A stretch of 32,000 nt of DNA from Desulfocapsa sulfexigens DSM 10523 (GCF_000341395.1 NC_020304.1:2850001-2882000), one strand, 5' to 3'. Counted from the first letter of the stretch, positions 4,261 through 28,492 are shown. Notes: generated by a model from the letters alone, not told the origin. Translations and numbers: made by a program.

Positions 4261-5052
4261 ATGCAACTAAATGTCATATCTCGATTTGGAAGTACCGGAC
4301 TTGTTGTGGTCACAGATATGGGGCGTATGGGCTTATATCTGCTCCAGATAATTCAGGGTTGTTTCAGGGTGCCATTTCGTTTCTCGGAGTTGATGCGTCA
4401 GCTCAATTTTATTGGTGTCGGCTCTCTTGTCGTAATCTTCTTCACCGCTGCTTCAACCGGAATGGTTCTTGGATTGCAGGGCTATTACTCATTACACAAA
4501 TTTGGCGCTGAAGGAATGCTTGGCTCGGCTGTGTCACTCACTCTTATAATGGAGCTTGGTCCGGTACTTACCGCCCTTATGGTGACCGGTCGTGCAGGAT
4601 CAGCCATGTGCGCAGAGCTTGGCATTATGCGTATTTCCGAACAGATCGATGCACTTGACTGTATGGCTGTTGATCCTTTCCGCTATCTTATTTCCCCTAA
4701 ACTTCTTGCTGCCTTTATTTCCGTTCCGTTGTTGACTGTCCTGTTCGATGTTGTCGGGATAGCTGGAGGCTATGTGGCTGGGGTCCAACTGATGGGAGTC
4801 AATCCGGGTAGCTTTTTTGATGGGATGCAGCGTAGTGTGACGAACCATGATATTATGCTCGGTACTGTGAAGTCATTTGTTTTTGCAGTGCTGATTGTCT
4901 GGATCTGCTCTGGCCGAGGGTTTTTTGTTCATCAGATCAAGGGAGCAGGATTTGGGGCCCGTAGTGTGTCAAAAGTTACCACACAGGCTGTTGTCCTTTC
5001 TTCAATATCTGTTCTTGTTTTCGATTATCTGCTCACGGCCATCCTGATATGA
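4261..5052 (+). CDS. mlaE: phospholipid/lipid-asymmetry ABC transporter permease MlaE
   Basis: 263-aa multi-pass protein. LGPVLTALMVTGRAGSAMCAELGIMRISEQIDAL is the hallmark MlaE/Ttg2B block. The stop overlaps the mlaF start (ATGA at 5049-5052). Confidence 0.88.
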   Translation: MQLNVISRFGSTGLVVVTDMGRMGLYLLQIIQGCFRVPFRFSELMRQLNFIGVGSLVVIFFTAASTGMVLGLQGYYSLHKFGAEGMLGSAVSLTLIMELGPVLTALMVTGRAGSAMCAELGIMRISEQIDALDCMAVDPFRYLISPKLLAAFISVPLLTVLFDVVGIAGGYVAGVQLMGVNPGSFFDGMQRSVTNHDIMLGTVKSFVFAVLIVWICSGRGFFVHQIKGAGFGARSVSKVTTQAVVLSSISVLVFDYLLTAILI

Positions 5053-5834
5053 ATGATATTAGCATAGAATTTAAAGAGGTTGCAAAAGCCTTTGTTCGCG
5101 ATAACGGCAGTAGGCAGGTTATTCTCGATAATGTGAGTTTTTCAATTCCAGCTGGTAAAACAACTGTTATCGCAGGGGGTAGTGGACAGGGGAAAAGTGT
5201 CACCTTGAAACTTATTCTTGGTCTCATGCAGGAAGACAGTGGGCATATATTTGTCGGAGGTGATGAAATAACCGGAATTCGAGGAGGTAAGCTTAAGGAA
5301 TTGCGCACTAGATTTGGTGTCTTGTTCCAAGGGTCTGCGCTTTTCGATTCCATGACCGTTTTTGAAAATGTTGCTCTCCCACTTAAGGAGAGAACAAATA
5401 AAACCGACAGTGACATAAAAAAACAGGTGTTGTCCAGTCTTGAGCAGCTCGAGTTGCTCGGTCACGAGAACAAGTTTCCGGCGCAGCTCAGCGGTGGTAT
5501 GAAGAAAAGAGCTGGGCTGGCAAGGGCTCTACAGCTGAAACCTGAGATTATGCTCTTTGACGAGCCAACCACAGGTCTTGATCCGGTGATGACTCAGGAG
5601 ATTTATCAGCTGTTTGCAAAAACTCAGGAACAGATTGGCTACACATCTGTTATTGTAAGCCATGATATTCCCAAAGTTTTCAATCTCGCTGATCAGGTGA
5701 TCGTTCTCCATAACGGGGAAGTGGAGGCTTTTCCCTCTCCTGAAGCGATACAATGGTCCAGTAAACCCCATATTCGTAAATTTGTGGAAACCACAATGGG
5801 TGAAATTTATCAGAGTCATTTGGTGGAACAATGA
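5049..5834 (+). CDS. mlaF: ABC transporter ATP-binding protein MlaF
   Basis: Walker A GGSGQGKS, signature LSGGMKKR, Walker B MLFDEPTTGLD and H-loop VSHD are present. It lies between mlaE and mlaD with ATGA overlaps at both ends. Confidence 0.88.
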   Translation: MNDISIEFKEVAKAFVRDNGSRQVILDNVSFSIPAGKTTVIAGGSGQGKSVTLKLILGLMQEDSGHIFVGGDEITGIRGGKLKELRTRFGVLFQGSALFDSMTVFENVALPLKERTNKTDSDIKKQVLSSLEQLELLGHENKFPAQLSGGMKKRAGLARALQLKPEIMLFDEPTTGLDPVMTQEIYQLFAKTQEQIGYTSVIVSHDIPKVFNLADQVIVLHNGEVEAFPSPEAIQWSSKPHIRKFVETTMGEIYQSHLVEQ

Positions 5835-6277
5835 AAAACAGCGTAGAATTTTTGGTAGGTCTTTTTATGATTGCAGGCTTTACAGCATTTGGGTATCTGG
5901 CTCTGCAGCTTGGCGAAGTTTCTCTCTTCAGTGATAGTAAAAACTATACTATAGTTGCTCAGTTTGACAACATATCAGGTGTGAAAAAAGGTGCTTCTGT
6001 GCAGGTGGCAGGTGTGGTTGTAGGCCAGGTCGACAAAATCTGGCTTGATGGTACCGGTGTGGCTAATATAGCCTTGAAACTCTCAAAAGATGTTGAACTC
6101 GCCACCGACTCCATGGCTTCAGTCAAATCCCAGGGGCTTATCGGTGATAAGTTTATTGCTCTGAGCCTTGGCGGAGATGAAGAATCTTTTAAAGATGGTG
6201 ATATTCTTACTGACACAGAGTCTGCAGTAGATATTGAATCTCTGATCAGTAAATTCGCCTTTGGTGATGTGAAATAA
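5831..6277 (+). CDS. mlaD: MCE-domain protein MlaD
   Basis: N-terminal TM anchor (VEFLVGLFMIAGFTAFGYLAL) is followed by a single MCE domain (SGVKKGASVQVAGVVVGQV). Length is 148 aa. Confidence 0.85.
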   Translation: MKNSVEFLVGLFMIAGFTAFGYLALQLGEVSLFSDSKNYTIVAQFDNISGVKKGASVQVAGVVVGQVDKIWLDGTGVANIALKLSKDVELATDSMASVKSQGLIGDKFIALSLGGDEESFKDGDILTDTESAVDIESLISKFAFGDVK

Positions 6278-6298
6278 ACTTCATCTTCTTCTTAATGT

Positions 6299-7135
6299 AT
6301 GAAAACTCTATTGTACCCTAAAATTATAATTCTTTTTACTCTATTGCTACTCTTGTGCTGCAGTTTTGGCTGTTCCCAGAAAGGTAGTGCTGTAGCTTTT
6401 CAGGATGTAGTCATTGAAGATGACGAGGTGCCGGTTGATAAAATGGATATGCTCCTGAATGATGATTTTTTCGATGAGGAAAAAGTCGTAGAACAGATTT
6501 ATTATGATCCGCTTGAGCCTATGAATAGGGTCTTTTTCGAGTTTAATGATAAGCTCTATTACTGGTTTCTGAGTCCATTGAATACTGCTTACACCGCTAT
6601 CTTACCCTGGGATATACGTTTTTCTATTGGAAATTTTGTGAATAATCTTGCTGCGCCTATTCGTCTGGTGAACAATCTCCTCCAGTTGAAAATTAAGGAT
6701 GCAGGGGTTGAGATATCCCGTTTTTTGATTAACTCCACACTGGGCGTTTTTGGCTTTGGTGATCCTGCCATGCTTGACTTCGGTCTTGCACCCAGAGAAG
6801 AGGATTTTGGTCAAACCCTTGGATACTGGGGGGTTGGCGAAGGTGTTTATCTCTGTGTGCCGATCATTGGGCCATCGAACGTCCGTGACCTGGTGGGGTT
6901 TACCGCAGATGCTTACACCCACCCCATGGTGTATTATATAGATGAACTCTATGTGAGTGCCGGGTATTACGCGGGGAGCAGGGTTAATCTGCTGTCTCTC
7001 AATCCTGAAGTATACGAAGATTTGAAAAAATATTCATTGGATCCTTATGTTTCCATGAGACAGGTCTATCTTGAATATCGCAGGAAAAAAATTGACGACA
7101 ACCCAATGCAACGCAGAAGTGATAATGAGTTGTAA
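6299..7135 (+). CDS. mlaA: MlaA/VacJ family outer-membrane lipoprotein
   Basis: Has a signal peptide with Cys-containing lipobox-like end (LLLLCCSFGCSQ) and the VacJ core DPLEPMNRVFFEFNDKLY...LGVFGFGD...FGQTLGYWGV. Confidence 0.85.
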   Translation: MKTLLYPKIIILFTLLLLLCCSFGCSQKGSAVAFQDVVIEDDEVPVDKMDMLLNDDFFDEEKVVEQIYYDPLEPMNRVFFEFNDKLYYWFLSPLNTAYTAILPWDIRFSIGNFVNNLAAPIRLVNNLLQLKIKDAGVEISRFLINSTLGVFGFGDPAMLDFGLAPREEDFGQTLGYWGVGEGVYLCVPIIGPSNVRDLVGFTADAYTHPMVYYIDELYVSAGYYAGSRVNLLSLNPEVYEDLKKYSLDPYVSMRQVYLEYRRKKIDDNPMQRRSDNEL

Positions 7136-7160
7136 AATCAATCTTTGAGTGAGTGTGTTT

Positions 7161-7778
7161 ATGATTAGAAAGCGATTGGTGTTTCTTCTGGTATATTTTG
7201 TTATCTTTTGCGCCCATGTTGCTGTGGCCTCTTCCAGTCCCACGGATTCTTTAAGACCCACCCTTGAAGGGGTGATTGATGTTATTCGTGATCCGAACCT
7301 TGCAGGTGTTGACCACAAGAAGGTGAGACGTGAAAAGGTGATGGCTATTGCAACCAGGGGGTTTGATTTCACCGAGATGTCTAAACGTGCTCTGGGAGCG
7401 ACCTGGAGAGATCTGAGTCAGGAAGAGCGCCAGTATTTTGAAGAACTTTTCACTAAGCTTCTTGAAAATGCCTATATCGGAAAACTTGAAGGGTACTCCG
7501 GGCAGGAGATAGTCTATCAGGATGAAAGGATAAAAGGAAACAGGGCTGCTGTTGCAACCATTGTAAAGAGCAGTGATACCGCACCTTTTTCGGTAAGTTA
7601 CGTGATGCTTCAAAGCGGCAGTGATTGGCTGGTCTATGACCTTAATATAGAAGGGGTCAGTTTTCTCCGTAATTACAGTGAACAGTTTAAATCAATTCTA
7701 AGGAAGGATAAATTTGCCGGATTGGTGAAAATACTTGAAGAAAAAAATGAGACTTTTGAAAAAGAGGAAAGCAACTAG
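7161..7778 (+). CDS. mlaC: periplasmic phospholipid-binding protein MlaC (Ttg2D family)
   Basis: Sec signal peptide (MIRKRLVFLLVYFVIFCAHVAVASS). The MlaC-type block is FDFTEMSKRALGATWRDLSQEERQYFEELFTKLLENAY. The track ORF begins at GTG 7149; ATG 7161 is preferred. Confidence 0.8.
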   Translation: MIRKRLVFLLVYFVIFCAHVAVASSSPTDSLRPTLEGVIDVIRDPNLAGVDHKKVRREKVMAIATRGFDFTEMSKRALGATWRDLSQEERQYFEELFTKLLENAYIGKLEGYSGQEIVYQDERIKGNRAAVATIVKSSDTAPFSVSYVMLQSGSDWLVYDLNIEGVSFLRNYSEQFKSILRKDKFAGLVKILEEKNETFEKEESN

Positions 7779-8212
7779 TGGAAAGGTTCCTGACCCGTAT
7801 TGGCCTCTCGGACGAAAATGCTTCCCATGAGCTTGTCTCTCTATTCACTGAGAAAAAAGTAGTGGGTGGTGACATCCTTTTTAATTATAATGATCCTGCT
7901 GAGGAATTGTTTTTTTTAATAGAGGGGCATCTTGCTGTTCATAAATATACTGGCTTCTTAGAAAAGACCCAGGTGATCGCCTTGATCGACCCAGGAGCTA
8001 TCGTGGGCGAATGCGCTATTTTGCAGCAGCATAAGCGAAGTACCCGAGTGACGGCAATTCAGGACAGTAAGCTTTTGTGCCTCACAAAAAATAATTTTGT
8101 AAAATTCCAGGAAGCATTTCCGGAAGTTGCGAATGCAATCCTCCAGTATCTACTTTCTATTGTCAGTCTCCGTCTTGAAAAGACCTCGGAGCGTCTAGCT
8201 CGCATTTTGTAG
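7778..8212 (+). CDS. stand-alone cyclic-nucleotide-binding domain protein (no HTH)
   Basis: GDILFNYNDPAEELFFLIEGHLAV begins the beta-roll. The phosphate-binding cassette GECAILQQHKRSTRVTA is intact (G-E-x-A...R-S-T). GTG at 7778 overlaps the mlaC TAG (7776-7778), and GAGGA lies 9 nt upstream. Confidence 0.75.
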   Translation: MERFLTRIGLSDENASHELVSLFTEKKVVGGDILFNYNDPAEELFFLIEGHLAVHKYTGFLEKTQVIALIDPGAIVGECAILQQHKRSTRVTAIQDSKLLCLTKNNFVKFQEAFPEVANAILQYLLSIVSLRLEKTSERLARIL

Positions 8213-8348: not shown

Positions 8349-8861
8349 ATGGAAATTCTACTTGCCGATAGTGCTGCAAAGAAAAACAGTCTTACTGTGA
8401 AAGAATTGATTCAATTTTCAGATATTGAACCTGAATTGAATGCTGAAGTAGTTGCCAAGTTTCTGGTTAGTCAACGGGAGGGAAACATATACAGTCTGGA
8501 TGGCAGTCTTATCGCTGCCGTTGTCACATGTTGTGATCGCTGTACCAATACGGTTGAACTTAACTTTGAGCAGGAGTTTTCTTATCAGCTGCGAGTAGAA
8601 GAAGAACCACAAATGGCAGCTGAGTATGGCTTTGGCGAAGAAGACTGTGATGTTGTATATCTCAAGGAGTCCGTTGTTGAAAGTGGAGATATCCTGAGAG
8701 AACAGCTGTTACTAGCCCTGCCAACTACTTGTTTATGTAGTGATACATGTAAGGGCTTATGTGATCGTTGTGGGATCAATTTGAATGAAAAGCAATGCAA
8801 GTGTAAGGAGACTAATGAAGATTCTCCTTTTGCTATATTAAAAAAATTACAGAAAAATTAG
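8349..8861 (+). CDS. yceD: YceD/DUF177 family protein (large-subunit rRNA accumulation protein)
   Basis: Cys motifs CDRC...C...CKGLCDRCGINLN..C.C are typical of DUF177. The gene sits at the conserved position directly upstream of rpmF-plsX. Confidence 0.8.
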   Translation: MEILLADSAAKKNSLTVKELIQFSDIEPELNAEVVAKFLVSQREGNIYSLDGSLIAAVVTCCDRCTNTVELNFEQEFSYQLRVEEEPQMAAEYGFGEEDCDVVYLKESVVESGDILREQLLLALPTTCLCSDTCKGLCDRCGINLNEKQCKCKETNEDSPFAILKKLQKN

Positions 8862-8907
8862 ACAATTCGTGTCGCTGATGCGGCATTGTATTATTGGAGG
8901 ATATATC

Positions 8908-9096
8908 ATGGCTCTGCCCAAAAGAAGACATTCCCGTTCCCGTACTAGAAAAAGAAGATCCCACGATGCTTTGACCGCACCAGGACTCAACAAGTGTTCA
9001 GAATGTGGTGAGGCTAAAATGCCCCATCGCATCTGCCCAAGTTGTGGTATGTATAAGGGTCGTTCCGTTTATAGTCTGGATGCCGAAATAGAGTAG
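8908..9096 (+). CDS. rpmF: 50S ribosomal protein L32
   Basis: MALPKRRHSRSRTRKRRSHD plus a zinc ribbon CSECG...CPSCG. GGAGG at 8896-8900 precedes ATG 8908. The track ORF begins further upstream at 8869. Confidence 0.92.
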   Translation: MALPKRRHSRSRTRKRRSHDALTAPGLNKCSECGEAKMPHRICPSCGMYKGRSVYSLDAEIE

Positions 9097-9106
9097 GCTG
9101 TATATC

Positions 9107-10126
9107 ATGCGCATTGCCTTGGATGCCATGGGGGGTGACCATGGACCTGATGAGCAGATAGCCGGGGCAATACAGGCTTTAGAAGAATCTGATCTAAAGC
9201 TGACTCTGGTCGGGGATGAGATTGCCATTCAGGCCTGTCTTGATCGGATGGCTCCGGCCGATGATGTCCTTTCCAGATTACAGGTCGTACACACTTCCGA
9301 AATGGTTGAGATGGGAGAGTCCCCAGTCGATGCCATCAGGAAAAAGAAAAACTCTTCTGTTATGCTTGCCTTTGATCTAGTAAAGAAAGGTGAAGCTGAT
9401 GCTGCAGTCAGTGCTGGAAATTCTGGTGCCACCATGGCTGCAGCCATTCGTAAGCTCGGGCGCATAGAGAATGTGTCCCGCCCTGGTATAGCCAGCGCTT
9501 TTCCCACCCTCAAGAAACCTGTAGTGATGATGGATGTTGGTGCCAATGTGGACTGTCGGCCGCATCATTTGTTTCAATTCGCCCTCATGGCTGCCGCTTT
9601 TTCCCGTGTTTTTGAAATCAAGTCTCCTCGAGTGGGGATTTTAAGTATAGGTGCGGAAACAGGGAAGGGGAATATCCTTGTAAAAGAAACCCATACTTTA
9701 CTTGCTAACAGTTCCCTGAATTTCATTGGCAATGTCGAAGGGCGGGATATCTTCCAGGGTAATGTCGACGTGATTGTTTGCGATGGCTTTGTAGGAAATG
9801 TTTGTCTGAAAGTCAGTGAAGGCCTTATTGAAGCTGCCACCGAGACGCTACGTGAAGGTATCATGAACTCCATGAAGGCTAAGTTCGGTTATTTTCTTGC
9901 AAAACCCGTTTTCCTGAAATTTAAAAAGCGTATGGATTATGCTGAGTACGGTGGAGCACCACTGCTTGGGATAAATGGGACTGGAATTATCTGTCATGGA
10001 AAATCTAACGCGGTTGCCATTAAAAATGCAATTCTTGAAGCTGCCAAAATTGTTGAGATAAAGGTAAACGAAAAAATTGTAGCGAGCCTTGCCGAACATC
10101 CTGAACCTTTGGCGGAGAAGAAATAA
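9107..10126 (+). CDS. plsX: phosphate acyltransferase PlsX
   Basis: MRIALDAMGGDHGP N-terminus and GFVGNV motif; 339 aa; canonical position after rpmF. Confidence 0.92.
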   Translation: MRIALDAMGGDHGPDEQIAGAIQALEESDLKLTLVGDEIAIQACLDRMAPADDVLSRLQVVHTSEMVEMGESPVDAIRKKKNSSVMLAFDLVKKGEADAAVSAGNSGATMAAAIRKLGRIENVSRPGIASAFPTLKKPVVMMDVGANVDCRPHHLFQFALMAAAFSRVFEIKSPRVGILSIGAETGKGNILVKETHTLLANSSLNFIGNVEGRDIFQGNVDVIVCDGFVGNVCLKVSEGLIEAATETLREGIMNSMKAKFGYFLAKPVFLKFKKRMDYAEYGGAPLLGINGTGIICHGKSNAVAIKNAILEAAKIVEIKVNEKIVASLAEHPEPLAEKK

Positions 10127-11100
10127 TGGGTGCGGTTATTCTTGGGACCGGTTCTTGCCTCCCTGAACGGGTTGTTTCGAATCATGATCTTGAACAATTG
10201 GTTGAGACCAGTGATGAGTGGATTGTGAGTCGAACCGGTATCTCGACTCGACGTATCAGCGGCAAAGGTGAAAATACTTTTCAACTTGCAACGTCGGCAG
10301 CAAAAAAGGCCATGGATATGGCCAAGGTCACAGCAGATGATATTGATCTCATAATTGTTGCAACCATGAGTTCACATATGCTTATGCCCTCCTGTGCATG
10401 TTTTGTTCAAAAGGAACTTGGTGCCCAAAAGGCTTATGCCTATGATGTGAATGCAGCTTGTTCCGGTTTTCTTTTTGCACTTGATAACGGTGACAAACAT
10501 CTCCGTGTTGAGCGGCAGCAAAAAATTCTCATAATTGGAACAGAGACGCTGTCAAGTCGAACAAACTGGAAAGACAGAAATACCTGTATTTTGTTTGGCG
10601 ATGGTGCTGGTGCCGTAGTCCTTGAGTATCAAGATGAAAATCGTGGTATTGTTGCATCAAGCCTTTTTTCCGACGGTACGCTCTGGAATCTTCTTTATAT
10701 GCACACTGCTCCCTCTTGTAATCCAGAAATTGAGCAAGCTGACAATCCTGGGGCTCATATCCTGATGGAGGGAAGGGAAGTTTTTAAATATGCCGTCAAG
10801 GCCATGCAGGGTGCAATAGAAAATCTGCTTGTACGGGAACAGATAGATCTTGACGCCATAGACGTAATGATTCCTCATCAGGCAAACATCAGAATACTGA
10901 AAAAACTGGTCTCCCGCCTTGGTATAAAAAAAGAAAAAGTGTTCATAAACGTGCAGAAATATGGTAATACATCAGCGGCTTCCATCCCGATTGCTCTTGA
11001 CGAGGCAAATCGTGAAGGACGTTTGAAACGTGGTGATTTGCTTTTAGTTTGTTCCTTCGGTGGTGGGTTTACATGGGGAGCATCTTTGATTAGGTGGTAA
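10126..11100 (+). CDS. fabH: 3-oxoacyl-ACP synthase III (FabH)
   Basis: The Cys-His-Asn triad contexts are NAACSGFLFAL, PHQANIRIL and GNTSAASIP. SDEWIVSRTGI is also present. Length is 324 aa. Confidence 0.92.
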   Translation: MGAVILGTGSCLPERVVSNHDLEQLVETSDEWIVSRTGISTRRISGKGENTFQLATSAAKKAMDMAKVTADDIDLIIVATMSSHMLMPSCACFVQKELGAQKAYAYDVNAACSGFLFALDNGDKHLRVERQQKILIIGTETLSSRTNWKDRNTCILFGDGAGAVVLEYQDENRGIVASSLFSDGTLWNLLYMHTAPSCNPEIEQADNPGAHILMEGREVFKYAVKAMQGAIENLLVREQIDLDAIDVMIPHQANIRILKKLVSRLGIKKEKVFINVQKYGNTSAASIPIALDEANREGRLKRGDLLLVCSFGGGFTWGASLIRW

Positions 11101-11112
11101 AGAGGAGAGACG

Positions 11113-12267
11113 ATGGATTATTTTCTTACAGAAGAACAAAGCATGATTGTGGATATTGCCAGGCAGATAACAGACGAGCAGATCATTCCAAAGCGTGCAG
11201 AGCTTGATGAAAAAGATGAGTTTCCTCGTGAGATTCTCGAAAGTATGGGACAGGCAGATCTTTTCGGGGTGCCGATTCCTGAAGAGTATGGTGGTTTTGG
11301 TGGAGGATGTTTCGATATTGTCTTAGCTCTGGAACAGCTCGGTCGTGGCTGTATAGGTGTCGCAACTGCTTTTGCAGCAAGCGCCCTTGGAATTTATCCA
11401 ATTATGATTTCTGGATCTGAGGAAATGAAACAAAAGTATCTTCCCTCAGTTGCCGCTGGTAAGAAATTCGCAGCATTTGGCCTTACGGAGGCCAATGCCG
11501 GGTCAGATGCCTCTGGAATCCAGACCACTGCAACCCTGGATGGTGATGAGTGGGTTATTAATGGAACCAAACAGTGGATTACTAATGGTGGTGAAGCCCA
11601 GATATATACAGTTGTAGCTATCACTGACAGGTCAAAAGGTGCCCGTGGTGCTTCGATGTTTGTTGTGGAGGAAGGTGATCCTGGCTTTACCTGTGGGCCT
11701 AAAGAAAAAAAGATGGGGATTCGTGCCTCGTCCACCACGGAATTGATTTTTAAAGATTGCAGAATTCCCAAAGACAGACTTATTGGGCGTTTGGGAACCG
11801 GGTTTATCACCGTGATGAAGACTCTTGATTCATCCCGTCCAGGTATTGCAGCACTTGGACTTGGTATTGGACAGGCTTGCATTGATGAGGCAACATCCTA
11901 TGCCAAACAGAGAATTCAGTTTGATAAACCTATTATTGGATTCCAGGCGATTCAGCATATTCTGGCAGATATGGCCATTCAGTTGGAGGCTTCAAGAGCA
12001 CTTGTCTATGCATCCGCCAAGCATATTGATGCGCACCCCAAGGATATGTCAAAAGTTTCCTCCATGTGCAAAGTCATGGCGACCGATATGGCTATGAAGG
12101 TGAGTACCGATGCTGTACAGGTTATGGGAGGCTATGGTTATATGCGTGAATATCCTGTTGAGAAAATGATGCGTGATGCCAAGATTCTCCAGATTTATGA
12201 AGGAACAAATCAGGTACAGCGTAATGTGATTGGTCAGGAACTAAATAAGGAATACTCGCGTAAATAG
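11113..12267 (+). CDS. acyl-CoA dehydrogenase family flavoprotein (short-chain/butyryl-CoA dehydrogenase-like)
   Basis: GLTEANAGSDASG and WITNGG motifs are present. The C-terminal QIYEGTNQVQR carries the ACAD catalytic Glu. GAGGAG SD lies 5 nt before the ATG, 12 nt after the fabH stop. Confidence 0.88.
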   Translation: MDYFLTEEQSMIVDIARQITDEQIIPKRAELDEKDEFPREILESMGQADLFGVPIPEEYGGFGGGCFDIVLALEQLGRGCIGVATAFAASALGIYPIMISGSEEMKQKYLPSVAAGKKFAAFGLTEANAGSDASGIQTTATLDGDEWVINGTKQWITNGGEAQIYTVVAITDRSKGARGASMFVVEEGDPGFTCGPKEKKMGIRASSTTELIFKDCRIPKDRLIGRLGTGFITVMKTLDSSRPGIAALGLGIGQACIDEATSYAKQRIQFDKPIIGFQAIQHILADMAIQLEASRALVYASAKHIDAHPKDMSKVSSMCKVMATDMAMKVSTDAVQVMGGYGYMREYPVEKMMRDAKILQIYEGTNQVQRNVIGQELNKEYSRK

Positions 12268-12285
12268 CAAACAGAGTTAACTACT

Positions 12286-13065
12286 ATGAAGATTGTTGTC
12301 TGTATCAAACAGGTGCCGGATGCCAAGGATGTACGTCTTGATCCGGTGACTAATACGCTGGCAAGAGAAGGGGTTCAGTCCATTATGAATCCCTATGATC
12401 AGCACGCTGTTGAGGAAGCAGTCCACCTGAAAGAAAAACTTGGTGGTACTGTAACTGTGTTGAGCATGGGACCGCCCCAGGCTGAAGAGGTTCTTAGACA
12501 GGCTATTTCCTGTGGTGCTGATCATGCAGTACTGGTCTCCGATCGAGCATTTGCAGGGGCCGATACCTGGGCTACTTCTTACACCCTTGCTAAGGCGGTT
12601 CAAAAGATTGGTGACTTTGATCTGATCCTCTGCGGAAAGCAGGCGATAGATGGTGATACTGCTCAGGTTGGACCAGGCCTTGCCATTCAACTCGACATTC
12701 CATTTGTTACCTGTATTCAGAAAATTCGTGAGGCAACGGATACAGAGCTTGTTATGGAACGGATGATGGATGATGGGTATGATGTGTTGGCCGTTGACTA
12801 TCCTGTTCTACTTACCGTTGTGAAGGATATTAATACTCCACGTGTGCCTTCATTGAAGGGCAAGATGAAAGCGAAAAAGGCGGAAATCCTCGTCCTGTCT
12901 GCCGCAGATGTCGGTGCTGATCCGAAAAAAATTGGTTTAGCAGGATCACCGACTCAGGTTGTTGATGTGTTCCCGCCACCTCCGCGTGGAGAGAGAGCTC
13001 TTTTGACCGGTTCCATTGATGACCAGGTTGAACAACTGGTTGAAAGACTGGCTGTCTACCTATAA
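12286..13065 (+). CDS. etfB: electron transfer flavoprotein beta subunit (EtfB)
   Basis: MKIVVCIKQVPD N-terminus and LILCGKQAIDGDTAQVGP motif; 259 aa. Confidence 0.9.
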   Translation: MKIVVCIKQVPDAKDVRLDPVTNTLAREGVQSIMNPYDQHAVEEAVHLKEKLGGTVTVLSMGPPQAEEVLRQAISCGADHAVLVSDRAFAGADTWATSYTLAKAVQKIGDFDLILCGKQAIDGDTAQVGPGLAIQLDIPFVTCIQKIREATDTELVMERMMDDGYDVLAVDYPVLLTVVKDINTPRVPSLKGKMKAKKAEILVLSAADVGADPKKIGLAGSPTQVVDVFPPPPRGERALLTGSIDDQVEQLVERLAVYL

Positions 13066-13088
13066 AGAGACTGGAGAAAGAGAAAACT

Positions 13089-14282
13089 ATGCTGATTGTT
13101 GATAAAGAACGGTGTACCGGTTGTGGTGTCTGTGAAGCTAATTGTGCTTTTGGGGCCATTGAAGTTGTTGATGGTATAGCCGTTGTCGGTGATGCCTGTA
13201 CTCTTTGTGGAGCCTGTGTAGAGAGTTGTGAGTTTGACGCCTTAACGATAGAGGGTGCTGAAAAAAGTGTTCAGATGGATCTGGAAAGCTGGAGCGGCAT
13301 CTGGGTTTACTGTGAATTCAGGGGTGGTAATTTAGCAACTGTTGCCTTGGAACTTCTGGGTGTCGGTCGAACACTTGCTGATGCCAGAGGTGTCAAATTG
13401 GTTGCAGTGTTGATTGGTTCCGAAACAGGTGACAGCGCTGAAAAGTTAATCGGCCACGGCGCTGATATTGTCTATCGTGCAGATGATCCTGCGCTCCACT
13501 ATTTTACCGATGAAGCATATGGGGCCATTCTTACAGAATTAATACGTAAGAAAAAACCGGAAGTAGTTCTTGCAGGTGCCACTGCTATTGGTCGTTCATT
13601 TTTTCCAGGTGTTGCAAATGCTCTTGGGGCCGGGCTTACTGCGGACTGTACTCAACTGGCAATACGCGCTGGTGACGGTGCGTTGCTGCAGACACGGCCA
13701 GCCTTTGGAGGCAACATCATGGCAACCATTGAATGCCCAGGCTCGAGACCACAGATGTCCACTGTACGGCCCAATGTGATGAAACAGCTTGAGTTTGATC
13801 CAAGTCGTAGTGGTGAGATTATAGATATAGATCTTGCTCCAGCCATGCTCAAGTCAAAAGTCAGGGTGTTGGAATCCGTTGTCTCTGATTCTGATGATGT
13901 CAATATTCAGGAATCTGATATTCTGGTCGGGGGTGGACGAGGACTTGATACTGAGAAAGGCTTTACCCTTATCCGTGAACTCGCCAGAAGTCTCGATGGT
14001 TCTGTTTCTGCAAGCCGTGCAGTTGTTGATGCCGGATGGATAGGATATCCTCACCAGGTTGGGCAGACCGGGAAAACAGTTGCTCCCAAGTTGTATATTG
14101 CCTGTGGTATTTCCGGGGCAATTCAGCATGTTGCCGGAATGCAATCATCTGAGACTATTGTTGCTATTAATCGTGATGAGAATGCTCCGATATTTAACGT
14201 TGCTGACTTTGGCATAGTGGGTGATCTGTTTGAGGTTTTACCTAAACTTATCAGTAAAATTGAGGAACATCGAAAATCATGA
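13089..14282 (+). CDS. etfA: electron transfer flavoprotein alpha subunit with N-terminal 2x[4Fe-4S] ferredoxin domain (Fd-EtfA)
   Basis: Two CxxCxxCxxxC motifs in the first ~55 aa (CTGCGVCEANC and CTLCGACVESC). The EtfA FAD block is PKLYIACGISGAIQHVAGM. The stop overlaps the fabG start (ATGA at 14279-14282). Confidence 0.88.
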   Translation: MLIVDKERCTGCGVCEANCAFGAIEVVDGIAVVGDACTLCGACVESCEFDALTIEGAEKSVQMDLESWSGIWVYCEFRGGNLATVALELLGVGRTLADARGVKLVAVLIGSETGDSAEKLIGHGADIVYRADDPALHYFTDEAYGAILTELIRKKKPEVVLAGATAIGRSFFPGVANALGAGLTADCTQLAIRAGDGALLQTRPAFGGNIMATIECPGSRPQMSTVRPNVMKQLEFDPSRSGEIIDIDLAPAMLKSKVRVLESVVSDSDDVNIQESDILVGGGRGLDTEKGFTLIRELARSLDGSVSASRAVVDAGWIGYPHQVGQTGKTVAPKLYIACGISGAIQHVAGMQSSETIVAINRDENAPIFNVADFGIVGDLFEVLPKLISKIEEHRKS

Positions 14283-15022
14283 GTCTGAAGGGGAAAAATG
14301 CATTGGTCACCGGTGGGAGCAGAGGAATTGGTCGTGCGATCTGTATTCGTCTTGCTGCCATGGGAGCCCATGTGTATATAAACTATGTGTCCAATCCCGA
14401 CGCTGCCAGTGAAACCCGAAAAATTATCATTGACGCAGGAGGGAGCGCTGATATCCTTGCGTTTAATGTTGGGGAGAGTACCCAGGCTCAGGATGCAATA
14501 CAAAGTTTAATAAAAGAAGCCGGGTCTCTCGATATACTTGTAAATAATGCAGGGATTACCCGGGATGGCTTGATGGCCAGAATGAAAGAAGAAGATTGGG
14601 ACGCCGTTCTTGATATCAATCTTAAAGGTTCTTTTATCTGTTCAAAGGCAGCGGCACGTTCCATGATGAAAAAAAGATGGGGACGGATTGTCAATATTTC
14701 TTCAGTCATAGGTTTTGCCGGAAATGCCGGACAGGTTAACTATGCAGCAGCCAAGGCTGGAATGCAAGGTCTGACTAAATCAATGGCACGTGAGTTTGCT
14801 GGACGGAATATTACGGTTAATGCGGTTGCCCCCGGGTATATCAGTACCGATATGACCCGTGACCTCCCTGAAGCAATACAGGAAAAAATTAAAAATCAAA
14901 TTCCCCTGGCAAGTCTTGGCAGTCCTCAAGATGTTGCTGGAGCAGTTGCGTATCTTGTCAGTGATGATGGGGCGTATGTCACAGGAAATACAATTCATGT
15001 GAATGGTGGAATGTATATGTGA
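14279..15022 (+). CDS. fabG: 3-oxoacyl-ACP reductase FabG
   Basis: LVTGGSRGIGRAI Rossmann motif, NNAGI, and the YAAAKAG catalytic Tyr/Lys; 247 aa. Confidence 0.92.
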   Translation: MSLKGKNALVTGGSRGIGRAICIRLAAMGAHVYINYVSNPDAASETRKIIIDAGGSADILAFNVGESTQAQDAIQSLIKEAGSLDILVNNAGITRDGLMARMKEEDWDAVLDINLKGSFICSKAAARSMMKKRWGRIVNISSVIGFAGNAGQVNYAAAKAGMQGLTKSMAREFAGRNITVNAVAPGYISTDMTRDLPEAIQEKIKNQIPLASLGSPQDVAGAVAYLVSDDGAYVTGNTIHVNGGMYM

Positions 15023-15123: not shown

Positions 15124-15354
15124 ATGGCAATTGAACAACAGATGGTTGATATTATCGTTGAGCAGTTGAGTGTTGATAAAGATAAAGTGGTTCCCGGTGC
15201 ATCATTTGTTGATGACCTTGGGGCCGATTCCCTCGATCTTGTTGAACTGATTATGGCAATGGAAGAAGAATTTGACGTCGAAATTCCCGACGAGGAAGCC
15301 GAAAAAATCGCTACTGTCCAGAATGCTATTGATTTTGTAAACAACTTGAAATAA
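15124..15354 (+). CDS. acpP: acyl carrier protein
   Basis: [20 protein letters not shown] contains the phosphopantetheine Ser in DSL; 76 aa. Confidence 0.95.
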
Positions 15355-15401: not shown

Positions 15402-16646
15402 ATGGCTAAGCGCAGAGTAGTTGTAACAGGCATTGGTTTGGTAACTCCTTTAGGAACTGGAAGGGATAAGACCTGGAAAAAGCTTCTTAACGGGGAAAGT
15501 GGTATAGGTCCGATTACTCGTTTCGATGCCTCCGGGTTTGCCTCGCAGATAGCTGCTGAGGTGTCCGATTTTGAGACCCTGGATCATTTTGATACAAAAA
15601 GTTCCAAACATCTTGATCTTTTTGTTCAATATGGCATCGTTGCTGCTCGTTCTGCCATTGAAGACAGCGGCGTGAATATTACTCCAGGTAATTGCAACAG
15701 GGTTGGGGTGATAACCGGCTGTGGCATGGGGGGGCTTGGGACGATTGAGAAGAACCACAGCGTTTATCTTGATCGCGGTTCAAAAAGGATATCACCATTC
15801 TTTATCCCAATGGCGATCCCTAATATGCCATCCGGGCATATATCTATGCAGATAGGCGCCAAAGGCCCTAACCTGTCATTGTCCACAGCCTGTGCTGCAG
15901 GGACTCATGCAGTTGGAGAAGCTTTCAGGTCCATTGTTTATGGAACTACTGATATTGTGGTAACCGGTGGGACTGAGTCTGTTATTTGTCCACTTGGGGT
16001 TGGTGGGTTCTCAGCTATGAAAGCTTTATCGACGAGAAACGATGACCCTACCAAGGCTTCACGTCCTTTTGATAAAGATCGTGATGGTTTTTTGATTGCT
16101 GAAGGTGCAGGCATGATTGTTCTTGAGGAATTGGAGCATGCACTTGCCAGAGGTGCTGATATTTATGCAGAAATGGTTGGTGCAGGAGCATCCAGTGATG
16201 CATATCACATCGCTGCTCCTCCTGAAGATGGCAACGGTGCAGCTCGCTGTATGGAAATGGCACTCCAGGATGCTGGTTTATTGCCATCTGATATTGATTA
16301 TATTAATGCCCATGGAACGTCTACTCCTTTGAATGATCGTTGTGAAACTGCTGCTATCAAAAGTGTTTTCGGTGACCATGCTGCAAAACTTGCCATTAGT
16401 TCAACAAAATCAATGACCGGACATGCTCTTGGCGCAGCTGGTGGTCTTGAGGCTGCGTTCCTTGCCATGACTATTAAGGATCAGATTGCTCCACCCACTA
16501 TTAACCTGGATAGTCCGAGCATTGAATGTGATCTGGACTACGTTCCGCATATCGCAAGAAAGATGGAAATTAGAGCTGCTATTTCCAATTCTTTTGGCTT
16601 TGGTGGAACCAATGGTGTTGTCGTTATGAAGCGTTTTGGTTCTTGA
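15402..16646 (+). CDS. fabF: 3-oxoacyl-ACP synthase II (FabF)
   Basis: RRVVVTGIGLVTPLG N-terminus, active-site Cys context STACAAG, and His motifs HGTSTP and GHALGAAG; 414 aa. Confidence 0.92.
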   Translation: MAKRRVVVTGIGLVTPLGTGRDKTWKKLLNGESGIGPITRFDASGFASQIAAEVSDFETLDHFDTKSSKHLDLFVQYGIVAARSAIEDSGVNITPGNCNRVGVITGCGMGGLGTIEKNHSVYLDRGSKRISPFFIPMAIPNMPSGHISMQIGAKGPNLSLSTACAAGTHAVGEAFRSIVYGTTDIVVTGGTESVICPLGVGGFSAMKALSTRNDDPTKASRPFDKDRDGFLIAEGAGMIVLEELEHALARGADIYAEMVGAGASSDAYHIAAPPEDGNGAARCMEMALQDAGLLPSDIDYINAHGTSTPLNDRCETAAIKSVFGDHAAKLAISSTKSMTGHALGAAGGLEAAFLAMTIKDQIAPPTINLDSPSIECDLDYVPHIARKMEIRAAISNSFGFGGTNGVVVMKRFGS

Positions 16647-20085: not shown

Positions 20086-21066
20086 TCAGTTGCGCCTGGT
20101 TTCAGCAAGGTGTAGGATTTCTGGTACCCGCTTCTCCAGTTCTGTGAGTGTCTTAAAATCCATTATAAGAGAAACAGCATCTGTTTCAAACGAAAGAGCA
20201 TGGGTTACCTTGCAGGTGGCTGGTAAATTCATGGTAGTAACTTTTTTTCTGAATAATTCTTCTGCAGAAATGCTTTGTGGAAAGAGCATCTTTTGCATGC
20301 AAGCCAAAAGAACAGTTGCTTTCTGTGGTTGATTCATTTCAGGATGAGTAAGGATTTCATTGAATTCGGGTTTCATTAACAGCTCTGTTAGTGTTTTTTC
20401 TTCTCTGTACGCAAGATCCTTGCACAGAGAAAGTAGCCTTTTTTGCTTTCCCCCACCAAGTTGTAAATCAATAAATATTCCATGAAGCAACTGTCTGTCT
20501 TCTGGACTCATTTTTAGTAGCTCATGTGCAGTTTTTTCACCAATGATTCCATTGTGTATGCTGATTTGAATATCCAACTCAAGCTCTATCAGATCTAAAC
20601 ATTTATTGATGGTGTGCGGCTGTATTTTTTGGTGAAGAATTGTAAAAAATAATGCCGCTGCCTCTTTACTATCCATATATTTAAGACAGTGGCTGAAAAA
20701 ATAGGCTTTTTCCATTGCACTGAAATTGCCAGAGAGTGACTGGTCTTCAACTATATAGGACAAAATATTTTTAGGTGAGTTATCTTCTCTGAGAATGAGA
20801 CATAGAGGGGATTTTTTACCAGGGTTGGTTTTGAGAGTTTCCAGCCTGGATTTTCCGCAGACCAATTTGTAGCGCTCTTTAGGTTGCCGCAGGAGGATTG
20901 GTGGACGAAGTATGCCTACTCTATTAATAGATTCAACAAGGGCAGTGGCGGGTGGTTTAGAACTAAGAAAAGGGTGAAGGCTCCATTCGTCTGAGATTTG
21001 TATTTTATTCAGCTCTATTGGGTGAAAGGTCGCAGAGGGATGCATCGTATCTGTAGTATGAAGCAC
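20086..21066 (-). CDS. divergent orphan ParB-like protein (ParB/Srx N-domain, helical middle, C-terminal dimerisation-like segment)
   Basis: LVESINRVGILRPPILLRQPKERYKLVCGKSRLETLK aligns to ParB box II/III (GILQPLIV....Y.IVAGERRFRAAK) with GERR replaced by GKSR. VEDQSLSGNFSAMEKAYFF resembles ENLQREDLSPLEEA. No ParA is adjacent. The start is either GTG 21066 or ATG 21045, and neither has a clear SD. Confidence 0.6.
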   Translation of the reverse strand: MLHTTDTMHPSATFHPIELNKIQISDEWSLHPFLSSKPPATALVESINRVGILRPPILLRQPKERYKLVCGKSRLETLKTNPGKKSPLCLILREDNSPKNILSYIVEDQSLSGNFSAMEKAYFFSHCLKYMDSKEAAALFFTILHQKIQPHTINKCLDLIELELDIQISIHNGIIGEKTAHELLKMSPEDRQLLHGIFIDLQLGGGKQKRLLSLCKDLAYREEKTLTELLMKPEFNEILTHPEMNQPQKATVLLACMQKMLFPQSISAEELFRKKVTTMNLPATCKVTHALSFETDAVSLIMDFKTLTELEKRVPEILHLAETRRN

Positions 21067-27408: not shown

Positions 27409-27813
27409 ATGAATTATGGAATAGTCAGTCAAGAGCAGCTGGAGCAGATTGATACAATTCTGGCCAGCAAGCTCATTAAACTTGGTGTCGATTGTGTCAT
27501 CATTATAGATATGGCAGGCAATATAATCACTGCCAAAGATAACGGTGAGAGTAAATATGATGTGTATTCCTTTGCTGCTCTGGCCGCAGGAAATTTTGCA
27601 ACAGTAGATGCTATGGCCAAATTGGTTGGTGAGGCGGAGTTTTCCCTGCTTTTCCATAAAGGTCAGGAATCGAATATCCATTTCAGTAAGATTGATGATG
27701 AGTTGTTACTTATATCTATGTTTGGAAAGGACATATCTCTCGGTTTTCTAAGACTAAACGTGGTTGAAGCTATCGAACAGATCCGTAAAGTTTGGGAAGG
27801 TGGCAACGGCTGA
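27409..27813 (+). CDS. mglB: Roadblock/LC7 domain protein, MglB-like GTPase-activating partner
   Basis: 134 aa with a typical Roadblock pattern (VDCVIIIDMAGNIITA...FAALAAGNFATVDAMAKL...LLLISMF). It lies directly upstream of the mglA homologue, as in the Myxococcus mglBA operon. Confidence 0.8.
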   Translation: MNYGIVSQEQLEQIDTILASKLIKLGVDCVIIIDMAGNIITAKDNGESKYDVYSFAALAAGNFATVDAMAKLVGEAEFSLLFHKGQESNIHFSKIDDELLLISMFGKDISLGFLRLNVVEAIEQIRKVWEGGNG

Positions 27814-27876
27814 TTTAATTCTGACAGCTTTCATTTTTGTAAAAAAACAGATGCGTTTAATACCGGGGGTAATGCG

Positions 27877-28482
27877 TTGAGTTTTATTAATTTAAAAGAC
27901 AAAGTAGTTCAGGTTAAAATTGTTTATTATGGCCCTGGCAGGTGTGGTAAGACAACAAACTTGGAATATGTGAATCGTAAATTTCGTGACCAGATTCAAT
28001 CAGAAATGGTTAGTCTGAAAACACACGGGGATCGAACGTTATTCTTTGACTTTCTACCCTTTGATATGGGCCAGATTAAGGGATATGACATTAAAATTCA
28101 GCTCTATACTGTACCTGGACAGGTGAAATATAATGCTACTCGAAAACTTGTTTTAAAAGGGGTAGATGGCGTTGTTTTTGTTGCTGACGCCATGGAGAAA
28201 CAGCGCGAAAAAAATATCCGTTCACTGAACCAGTTACACGAAAATCTCCAGGCATATAAAGAATCAATCTTTAAGATTCCTCTGGTTATCCAATACAACA
28301 AGGTCGACTTGAAAGATCATGGAGTCCCGATATTGCCCACGGCAGTTCTGCGAAAAGATCTGAACAGTCGGCTGAAAGTACCGGATTTTGAAGCAAGTGC
28401 TATTACGGGATATAATGTTGCGGCAACCTTGAAAAAGATTATTTCATCAACGGTTGTTTCTATACAGAAAAAATTACTATAG
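27877..28482 (+). CDS. mglA: Ras-like small GTPase MglA
   Basis: Nearly collinear with M. xanthus MglA as I recall it. MSFIN...KIVYYGPGRCGKTTNL is the P-loop. DRTLFFDFLP carries the intrinsic Arg, YTVPGQV the catalytic Gln, LKGVDGVVFVAD follows, and YNKVD is the NKxD box. TTG start with GGGGG SD 7 nt upstream. Confidence 0.88.
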   Translation: MSFINLKDKVVQVKIVYYGPGRCGKTTNLEYVNRKFRDQIQSEMVSLKTHGDRTLFFDFLPFDMGQIKGYDIKIQLYTVPGQVKYNATRKLVLKGVDGVVFVADAMEKQREKNIRSLNQLHENLQAYKESIFKIPLVIQYNKVDLKDHGVPILPTAVLRKDLNSRLKVPDFEASAITGYNVAATLKKIISSTVVSIQKKLL

Positions 28483-28492
28483 GGAATAGACG

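Follow-up and report, generated by a model that had tools for sequence, protein, structure and literature searches.

Among the closest described systems are two complexes built from an acyl-CoA dehydrogenase (ACAD) and an electron transfer flavoprotein (Etf) with an EtfB and an EtfA subunit. These are the energy-conserving, electron-bifurcating butyryl-CoA dehydrogenase complex Bcd-EtfAB of fermenting bacteria, known from C. difficile (5OL2) and A. fermentans (4KPU/4L1F), and the caffeyl-CoA reductase-Etf complex CarCDE of Acetobacterium woodii (6FAH). In bacterial fatty-acid synthesis, the reduction of enoyl-acyl carrier protein (enoyl-ACP) is the pace-setting, drug-targeted step, for which four classes of reductase are recognised, FabI, FabK, FabL and FabV. 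The window considered here, a stretch of 32,000 nucleotides (nt) from Desulfocapsa sulfexigens DSM 10523 (NC_020304.1:2850001-2882000), contains at positions 11113-14282 a three-gene module that encodes an ACAD, an EtfB and an EtfA with a ferredoxin domain, and that lies within an operon for type II fatty-acid synthesis (FAS). The components come from families already known, and the chemistry proposed for them follows Bcd-EtfAB, yet the three genes probably represent a step of bacterial lipid synthesis, reducing ferredoxin, that has so far gone undescribed. That the module has some role in fatty-acid synthesis is held here with high confidence; that it functions as an NADH-dependent, ferredoxin-reducing enoyl-ACP reductase is the favoured reading, to which we give an even chance. 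No description of an ACAD or Etf in fab operons, or of an Etf-dependent or bifurcating enoyl-ACP reductase, was found in open-access full text and bioRxiv.

The window was studied by Pfam and NCBIfam domain searches and by reading the open reading frames (ORFs) and junctions of the + strand cluster, in which the gene order is yceD-rpmF-plsX-fabH-ACAD-etfB-etfA-fabG-acpP-fabF. The ACAD gene (11113-12267, +) encodes a flavoprotein of 384 aa, proposed to be the catalytic subunit for enoyl or acyl thioesters. Its ATG follows the fabH stop at 11100 after a gap of 12 nt, with AGGAG ahead of the start. The gene for the bifurcating-type small subunit, etfB (12286-13065, +), begins 18 nt after the ACAD stop at 12267. 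It is followed after 23 nt, counted from its stop at 13065, by etfA (13089-14282, +), which encodes a CarE-like subunit and has GGAGA ahead of its start. The TGA of etfA and the ATG of fabG share the ATGA at 14279-14282, and fabG is probably translationally coupled to etfA. The initial annotation had listed these three gaps, the Shine-Dalgarno sequence before the ACAD and the ATGA overlap, all of which are borne out by the ORF reading.

A genome scan with the ACAD, at one genome per species, retrieved 12 loci from Desulfobulbales/Desulfobulbia. The order from yceD to fabF is identical in all of them (12/12), the gap between fabH and the ACAD measures 12-18 nt in eight of the 12, and the etfA-fabG junction lies between -4 and +3 nt in nine of 11. 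Among these organisms no enzyme of the cluster is better conserved than the ACAD, with 78-86% identity (FabH, 55-71%; FabG, 63-75%; FabF, 65-77%), and the ferredoxin domain of EtfA retains at least eight Cys in 10 of 11 loci. The fab-ACAD-etfBA arrangement is not due to chance. It is not peculiar to this genome either, as relatives of the module occur in fab operons of many phyla. The earlier proposal, that the three genes belong integrally to the fab operon, therefore stands, with the order kept in every Desulfobulbales locus and tight junctions in most.

Regarding the Etf, the product of etfB matches the Pfam family ETF and carries, without a mismatch, the motif IDGDTAQVGP, by which bifurcating EtfB proteins have been recognised (PMC10553843). 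Among solved structures it is closest to CarD (249 bits) and LctB (248 bits), non-bifurcating Etfs reaching at most 102 bits. Taken together, the bifurcating Etfs (CarDE, LctBC and those of A. fermentans, T. maritima and C. difficile) score 224-249 bits with EtfB and 273-432 bits with EtfA, versus about 80-150 bits for the non-bifurcating Etfs of human, Paracoccus and Methylophilus. EtfA, which matches Pfam ETF and ETF_alpha, aligns over its full length, from residue 4, to CarE (6FAH_A; 432 bits, 50.9% identity), ferredoxin domain included. This N-terminal 2x[4Fe-4S] domain, encoded at about 13089-13290, has eight Cys at residues 9, 12, 15, 19, 37, 40, 43 and 47, arranged in two CxxCxxCxxxC motifs. 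From its motif and its higher scores to CarDE, LctBC and the Bcd-linked Etfs, the module Etf is predicted to be of the electron-bifurcating (group 2) type, which answers the Etf classification that the initial annotation had set out as a check.

The module thus resembles CarCDE in its full-length CarE-like EtfA with two [4Fe-4S] clusters and in an EtfB whose best match is CarD. Unlike CarCDE, it has no carA or carB (CoA transferase/ligase) as neighbours, the adjacent genes being fabH and fabG, and its setting is lipid synthesis and not phenylacrylate respiration. With Bcd-EtfAB it shares the ACAD-EtfB-EtfA composition, the catalytic Glu and the bifurcating EtfB motif, but its EtfA possesses the additional ferredoxin domain.

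The window ACAD is a member of the acyl-CoA dehydrogenase superfamily. The domains PF02771, PF02770 and PF00441 are all above cut-off, and the catalytic residue, Glu363, lies in IYEGTNQ (the YEGT motif). The best solved match is C. difficile Bcd (5OL2_C; 51.5% identity, 395 bits), the score with CarC being 304 bits, so that this subunit, in contrast to the Etf, is nearer to Bcd than to the CarCDE system. It reaches no NCBIfam equivalog cut-off for any CoA- or carrier-protein-dependent ACAD. Identity with acryloyl-CoA reductase AcrABC was rejected, with scores of 416, 248 and 359 against equivalog cut-offs of 640, 475 and 600, respectively. The ACADs that depend on ACP or on a peptidyl carrier protein show that the fold accepts carrier-protein thioesters, but they serve secondary metabolism and their similarity to the module ACAD is weak: MbtN scores 84 bits (cut-off 700), RedW 253 (650) and PigA 235 (500), all below cut-off, and AnaB (4IRN) 184 bits. 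For none of these enzymes do we know of a dedicated bifurcating Etf.

In a neighbour-joining tree of ACADs, drawn without bootstrap support and with butyrate-type references (L020 and L024, Odoribacter/Acetatifactor ACADs), the window ACAD and its Desulfobulbales orthologues belong to a cross-phylum clade that is placed apart from 5OL2_C and from the butyrate-type ACADs. Members from different phyla are 65-72% identical to each other and have as signatures MDYFLTEE, GLTEANAGSD, SRPG and EGTNQIQRN, together with the basic residues R178, K236 and K310. The clade lacks a one-residue insertion in helix E that is common to Bcd and to the acyl-CoA dehydrogenase for short chains (SCAD). At the pocket floor it has Ala, Gly or Ser, at positions that we take to match Gln95 and Glu99 of the medium-chain acyl-CoA dehydrogenase (MCAD). 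Helix E has been described as the chain-length determinant in ACADs (PMC11153573, PMC13027082). The sequence features of this region argue, short of proof, for a pocket that is not restricted to C4. By its tree position, missing insertion and Ala/Gly pocket floor, the module ACAD would not be a bona fide clostridial butyryl-CoA dehydrogenase, and is assigned to a separate, highly conserved subfamily. Branching inside the bona fide Bcd enzymes, which the initial annotation had named as an outcome speaking against its proposal, is not what the tree gives. Most of the refuting outcomes that it had listed have in this way turned out to its advantage.

Outside Desulfobulbales, a search of metagenome contigs with a profile of the other members of the ACAD subfamily returned 80 loci. 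Fab genes on the same strand lie within 6 kb of the ACAD in 39 of these, and in 15 of the 25 loci whose flanks extend for at least 2.5 kb to either side. The subfamily is linked to fab operons in no fewer than five gene orders, the module standing either inside or beside the operon. In one (type B; L094, L096, L110) the module closes the operon, rpmF-plsX-fabH-fabD-fabG-acpP-fabF-ACAD-etfB-etfA. Another (type C; L126, L127, L163) reproduces the order of the window with fabD added, plsX-fabH-ACAD-etfB-etfA-fabD-fabG-acpP-fabF. A third (type D; L145, L167, L168) has no adjacent etf genes and reads plsX-ACAD-fabD-fabG-acpP-fabF-rpiB-glyA-nrdR. In L100 (type E) the genes are plsX-fabG-ACAD-acpP-fabF-rnc-etfB-etfA, and in a Clostridia lineage (type F; L081, L082, L085, L103) the module is divergent, at 3-4 kb from rnc-fabF-acpP-fabG-fabD-fabH-plsX-...-pgsA. 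Junctions are tight in these loci as well: a single nt separates plsX from the ACAD in L168, and L121 has genes that overlap by 4 nt.

Exact-sequence cluster look-ups assigned four loci to taxa: L126 to Nitrospirota, L130 to Fermentibacteria/Sabulitectum, L115 to Omnitrophota/Ratteibacteria and L145 to Syntrophorhabdales. Two more are probably from Margulisbacteria/Saganbacteria (L121) and Actinomycetota (L127), according to the indirect evidence of the names of the closest relatives of a nitronate monooxygenase (NMO)-family protein that they encode. The module is therefore found inside or near fab operons in anaerobes of about seven phyla, and the differing gene orders point to repeated recruitment or to a long-maintained linkage. 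No thl, hbd or crt was found with the module in the window, the 12 Desulfobulbales loci and some 90 further contexts. Stand-alone copies of the module are flanked by housekeeping or unrelated genes, and in no case by thl, hbd, crt or beta-oxidation genes.

Several of these loci have features of their own. In the Syntrophorhabdales-type loci (L144, L145, L154, L155 and L167-L171), which read rpmF-plsX-ACAD-fabD-fabG-acpP-fabF, the ACAD occupies the usual slot of fabH, with no fabH and no etf genes next to it. Four Clostridia loci (L081, L082, L085, L087) carry a stand-alone ACAD-etfB-Fd-etfA set between rimO/miaB-like-pgsA and recX-recA, and their neighbouring fab cluster, plsX-fabH-fabD-fabG-acpP-fabF-rnc, contains no fabK or fabZ. 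One type-B operon has a 277-aa relative of uroporphyrinogen decarboxylase (URO-D) encoded between etfB and etfA (L094:12046-12879).

Expression of the module can be followed in the related organism Desulfurivibrio dismutans AMeS2, through a supplementary proteome table that holds detected proteins only (PMC12142623); what is said here of this proteome applies to the entries listed. The cluster comprises PlsX (RS01475), FabH (RS01480), ACAD (RS01485), EtfB (RS01490), EtfA (RS01495), FabG (RS01500), ACP (RS01505) and FabF (RS01510), and the overlap between etfA and fabG is kept. All of these proteins were detected, the ACAD, EtfB and EtfA included (PMC12142623). In order of abundance FabZ ranks 126, the ACAD 157, EtfA 259, FabG 298, EtfB 348 and FabF 372, which places the ACAD at about the level of FabZ. 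The module ACAD is the sole protein listed as an acyl-CoA dehydrogenase, and no thiolase, hydroxybutyryl-CoA dehydrogenase or enoyl-CoA hydratase appears among the listed proteins. Neither do FabI, FabV, FabL or any protein named as an enoyl reductase, nor a desaturase, FabA, FabB or FabM, the list having only FabZ and FabF. D. dismutans is an obligate chemolithoautotroph that uses the Wood-Ljungdahl pathway (PMC12142623). Given this autotrophy, the abundance of the ACAD and the lack of beta-oxidation enzymes among the listed proteins, a catabolic or butyrate-forming role in D. dismutans is very unlikely. This separates the module further from Bcd-EtfAB: its partners are fab genes instead of thl, hbd and crt, and D. 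dismutans, an autotroph, expresses it without forming butyrate.

The genes that surround the module in the window are those of a type II FAS operon, all on the + strand. After yceD (8349-8861) and rpmF (8869-9096), the first lipid gene is plsX (9107-10126), for phosphate acyltransferase (TIGR00182, 376 bits, cut-off 243; Pfam FA_synthesis), followed by fabH (10126-11100), for beta-ketoacyl-ACP synthase III (NF006829, 430 bits, cut-off 249; TIGR00747). On the other side of the module lie fabG (14279-15022), for 3-oxoacyl-ACP reductase (TIGR01830, 330 bits, cut-off 298), acpP (15124-15354), whose acyl carrier protein (Pfam PP-binding) is 72-92% identical across orthologous clusters, and the last fab gene, fabF (15402-16646), for beta-ketoacyl-ACP synthase II (TIGR03150, 638 bits, cut-off 494). 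Downstream of fabF the genes are rpiB-glyA-nrdR-ribD. The Pfam and NCBIfam searches found no gene for FabI, FabK, FabL, FabV, FabA, FabB, FabM or FabZ in the 32 kb of the window or, on the source contig (L091), in the next 10 kb downstream. What had been noted for the cluster, that it is without an enoyl-ACP reductase and without FabA, FabB and FabM, is thereby extended to this larger region.

A scan for consensus promoters and terminators gave no sites at the module junctions, all predicted sites falling within genes; over the window, promoter-like sites do not exceed the chance level of shuffled sequence, and terminator-like sites are about two standard deviations above it. The GC content of the module is continuous with that of the flanking DNA. 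Recent horizontal transfer was considered and rejected because of this continuity and because the ACAD tree in Desulfobulbales looks vertical.

The window cluster has no fabD at the place between fabH and fabG where this gene usually lies, and the fabD of D. dismutans is found away from the fab cluster (RS06875). The Nitrospirota-type operon (L126/L163), plsX-fabH-ACAD-etfB-etfA-fabD-fabG, has the window order with fabD kept, which suggests that Desulfobulbales lost or moved fabD once the module was already in place.

From the perspective of its mechanism, the module would form one flavoprotein complex of ACAD, bifurcating EtfB and two-cluster EtfA, of the same build as Bcd-EtfAB and CarCDE, that has been recruited to type II fatty-acid synthesis. 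In this scheme, the bifurcating FAD of EtfB would be reduced by NADH. Of the two electrons, the one at high potential would travel through the FAD of EtfA to that of the ACAD and on to the trans-2-enoyl thioester produced by FabZ, most likely enoyl-ACP, which would become acyl-ACP. The one at low potential would be handed on to ferredoxin by the two [4Fe-4S] clusters of EtfA. The net reaction would be enoyl-ACP + 2 NADH + Fd(ox) -> acyl-ACP + 2 NAD+ + Fd(red), and strict anaerobes would by this means recover low-potential reducing power in each elongation cycle, with the complex acting alone or beside a FabK/FabX-like enzyme. Gene order, its conservation, expression in D. dismutans, the subfamily status of the ACAD, the bifurcating-type signatures of the Etf and the repeated placement in fab operons are observed here, while substrate (enoyl-ACP), direction (reduction) and bifurcation are what we infer. 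Enoyl-ACP is the most likely substrate because all the other enzymes of the operon use ACP thioesters and because no partner from a CoA pathway is present in any of the contexts seen.

Such an enzyme would carry out the same reaction step as FabI, FabL and FabV, which are short-chain dehydrogenases/reductases (SDRs), and as FabK, a flavin mononucleotide (FMN) enzyme of the NMO family. The gene fabK lies between fabH and fabG/fabD in many Firmicutes, which is the slot of the module in the window. The module has no homology with these enzymes, being made of an ACAD fold and an Etf, and the only SDR of the cluster is FabG. It would also differ from them in having three subunits with FAD and Fe-S clusters, and in using 2 NADH with reduction of ferredoxin versus the plain use of NAD(P)H.

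A number of observations weigh against the assignment as enoyl-ACP reductase. About 40% of the well-flanked loci have no fab neighbour. The ACAD is closer to CoA-dependent ACADs (416 bits with the AcrC model, besides the 395 bits with Bcd) than to RedW or MbtN. The net charge of the subfamily is acidic, as in other ACADs, with no evident basic shift that would suit ACP. The CoA contacts D269 and R272 of SCAD are kept in the window ACAD as D239 and R242, although these two do not separate CoA from ACP, because they are kept across the ACADs aligned. Additionally, D. dismutans produces an abundant 322-aa protein named nitronate monooxygenase (RS00235, rank 180; PMC12142623), which belongs to the FabK/FabX family and could be a reductase of the FabK type. 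In L121 (15051-16013) and L127 (15183-16130) a gene of this family, for a co-operonic NMO of 316-320 aa, is flanked by acpP and fabF and shares its operon with ACAD-etfBA. Since an NMO-family protein coexists with it, the module may not be the sole enoyl reductase, and it may even have another function. Of the two options in the initial annotation, an Etf-coupled enoyl reductase that completes the FAS cycle and an acyl-ACP dehydrogenase for a desaturation branch, the former is favoured and has gained a bifurcating-type Etf, though perhaps not as the only reductase, in view of the NMO in D. dismutans, L121 and L127.

The co-operonic NMO has distinctive features. It scores 194 bits with the FabK equivalog model (cut-off 453), 157 bits with T. 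maritima FabK and 138 bits with a FabX-type entry. It contains a CxxCxxxCxxxxC motif, three Cys of which align exactly with the [4Fe-4S] ligands C304, C308 and C320 of H. pylori FabX, the fourth being one residue off C300. Each of the 120 homologues listed retains the four-Cys motif, and the named homologues are mostly from Margulisbacteria/Saganbacteria, with a few from Omnitrophota and Actinomycetota. These FabX-like cluster ligands sit where FabK forms its NAD(P)H-binding motif. The co-operonic NMO may be read as an anaerobic FabX-like enzyme or as a ferredoxin-linked FabK. Its FabX-like Cys motif leaves the ACAD-Etf as the candidate for the NADH-linked reductase in the L121 and L127 operons. 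At least some genomes would then have two FAS-linked flavoenzyme systems for two jobs, enoyl reduction and the introduction of a cis double bond, and the simpler assignment would make the Fe-S NMO the FabX-like enzyme and the ACAD-Etf, with its NADH site, the reductase.

The opposite assignment gives the first of the rival explanations. According to it, the module would be an acyl-ACP dehydrogenase for the O2-independent synthesis of unsaturated fatty acids, which would run in reverse, as FabX does, convert a medium-chain acyl-ACP to the trans-2-enoyl form and isomerise trans-2 to cis-3 through the catalytic Glu, with the Etf taking up the electrons and a FabK-like protein acting as the enoyl reductase. 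ACADs do isomerise 3-enoyl and 2-enoyl thioesters, and the pocket of the module ACAD looks suited to medium or long chains and not to C4. In D. dismutans FabA, FabB, FabM and a desaturase are missing among the listed proteins, which leaves room for another route to cis double bonds, and NMO-family candidates for the reductase exist both there and in the two operons. FabX, the precedent named in the initial annotation, is likewise a flavoprotein that acts on acyl-ACP within FAS, and FabX-like NMO genes stand beside the module in these same operons. FabX is nonetheless an NMO-family dehydrogenase/isomerase of another fold, which needs O2 and has no Etf, whereas the relatives of the module work as reductases: Bcd-Etf, CarCDE and acryloyl-CoA reductase all reduce enoyl thioesters. 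Feeding the oxidation of an acyl thioester (about -10 mV) into a bifurcating NADH/ferredoxin Etf would cost reduced ferredoxin, and isomerisation alone needs no redox partner, since FabZ already supplies trans-2-enoyl-ACP. The co-operonic NMO, with FabX-like ligands in the region of the NAD(P)H motif of FabK, is the more natural analogue of FabX. A dehydrogenase of the desaturation branch is accordingly unlikely, and reduction is the favoured direction.

A second rival explanation places the module at the level of CoA, as an ordinary Bcd-like enoyl-CoA reductase or acyl-CoA dehydrogenase that provides FabH with short acyl-CoA primers or takes them away, or that is co-located with the fab genes for no functional reason. 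The identity of about 50% to Bcd, CarD and CarE would fit such an enzyme, as would the best NCBIfam matches, which are the CoA-dependent AcrABC models, the retention of the CoA-contacting Asp and Arg of SCAD, and the many copies in Clostridia, Omnitrophota and Endomicrobia that stand alone, away from fab genes. Yet a thiolase, Hbd or Crt partner is lacking in about 100 contexts and among the listed proteins of D. dismutans, an obligate autotroph in which the ACAD is expressed at the level of FabZ. The five or more fab-operon gene orders across phyla include plsX-ACAD-fabD operons without fabH, the ACAD clade lies apart from Bcd and has no Bcd/SCAD helix-E insertion, and no equivalog cut-off is reached. 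An enzyme confined to CoA thioesters is, on balance, improbable.

Finally, the module could be an electron hub, in which the ferredoxin domain of EtfA exchanges electrons with the [4Fe-4S] cluster of the FabX/FabK-like NMO, so that electrons from the formation of cis-3-decenoyl-ACP flow through Etf and ACAD to another enoyl-ACP and replace the O2 of FabX; the anaerobic hosts of the module, the need of FabX, with its [4Fe-4S] cluster, for O2 as acceptor (PMC8626469), the co-operonic Fe-S NMO of L121 and L127, the invariant four-Cys motif among the homologues listed and the conserved Cys of the EtfA ferredoxin domain would suit this idea, but it is purely inferential, the NMO gene is outside the operon in Desulfobulbales and the type D ACAD of Syntrophorhabdales has no adjacent etf genes, all of which makes it decidedly improbable.

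Returning to the module as an enoyl-ACP reductase, a wider reading can be put forward tentatively, at somewhat under even chances. It would make the module a fifth class of enoyl-ACP reductase and the first bifurcating step of type II FAS, widespread in strict anaerobes, with one reduced ferredoxin gained per elongation cycle and perhaps with a further role as an O2-free electron sink for the FabX-like Fe-S enzyme. The anaerobes concerned would be Desulfobulbales, Syntrophorhabdales, Nitrospirota, Omnitrophota, Fermentibacterota, probably Margulisbacteria and anaerobic Actinomycetota, and some Clostridia. If true, a core, drug-targeted FAS enzyme would exist in a new and mechanistically different class, the bifurcating ACAD/Etf reductase, and anaerobes that live near the thermodynamic limit would recover low-potential electrons even from biosynthesis. 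It would also explain the presence of genes for "butyryl-CoA dehydrogenase/Etf" in many uncultured anaerobic phyla that have no butyrate or beta-oxidation pathway. Metagenome reconstructions routinely take such Bcd/Etf genes to indicate fermentation or the degradation of fatty acids, a misreading that confirmation would correct. The FabX-like Fe-S flavoprotein, for its part, offers a lead on how anaerobes without FabA, FabB or FabM make unsaturated fatty acids.

The surroundings of the operon hold other genes. Directly upstream of yceD-rpmF-plsX, positions 4261-8212 of the window encode a Mla lipid-transport set (mlaE, an ABC ATPase, mlaD, mlaA and mlaC) and a cNMP-binding protein, and pssA and psd are found about 5-6.5 kb beyond the end of the window (L091). 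With the Mla set on one side and pssA and psd on the other, the region is rich in membrane-lipid genes. On the - strand, at 20086-21066, lies an ORF of 326 aa without a Pfam family, which is also called as a gene on the source contig (L091, 1592-2572). Towards the end of the window, positions 27409-31645 comprise an ORF of 134 aa without a Pfam match, a Ras/Arf-like small GTPase (27877-28482) and a 1050-aa protein, likewise without a Pfam match (28493-31645). These three genes could constitute a GTPase-associated system of unknown function.

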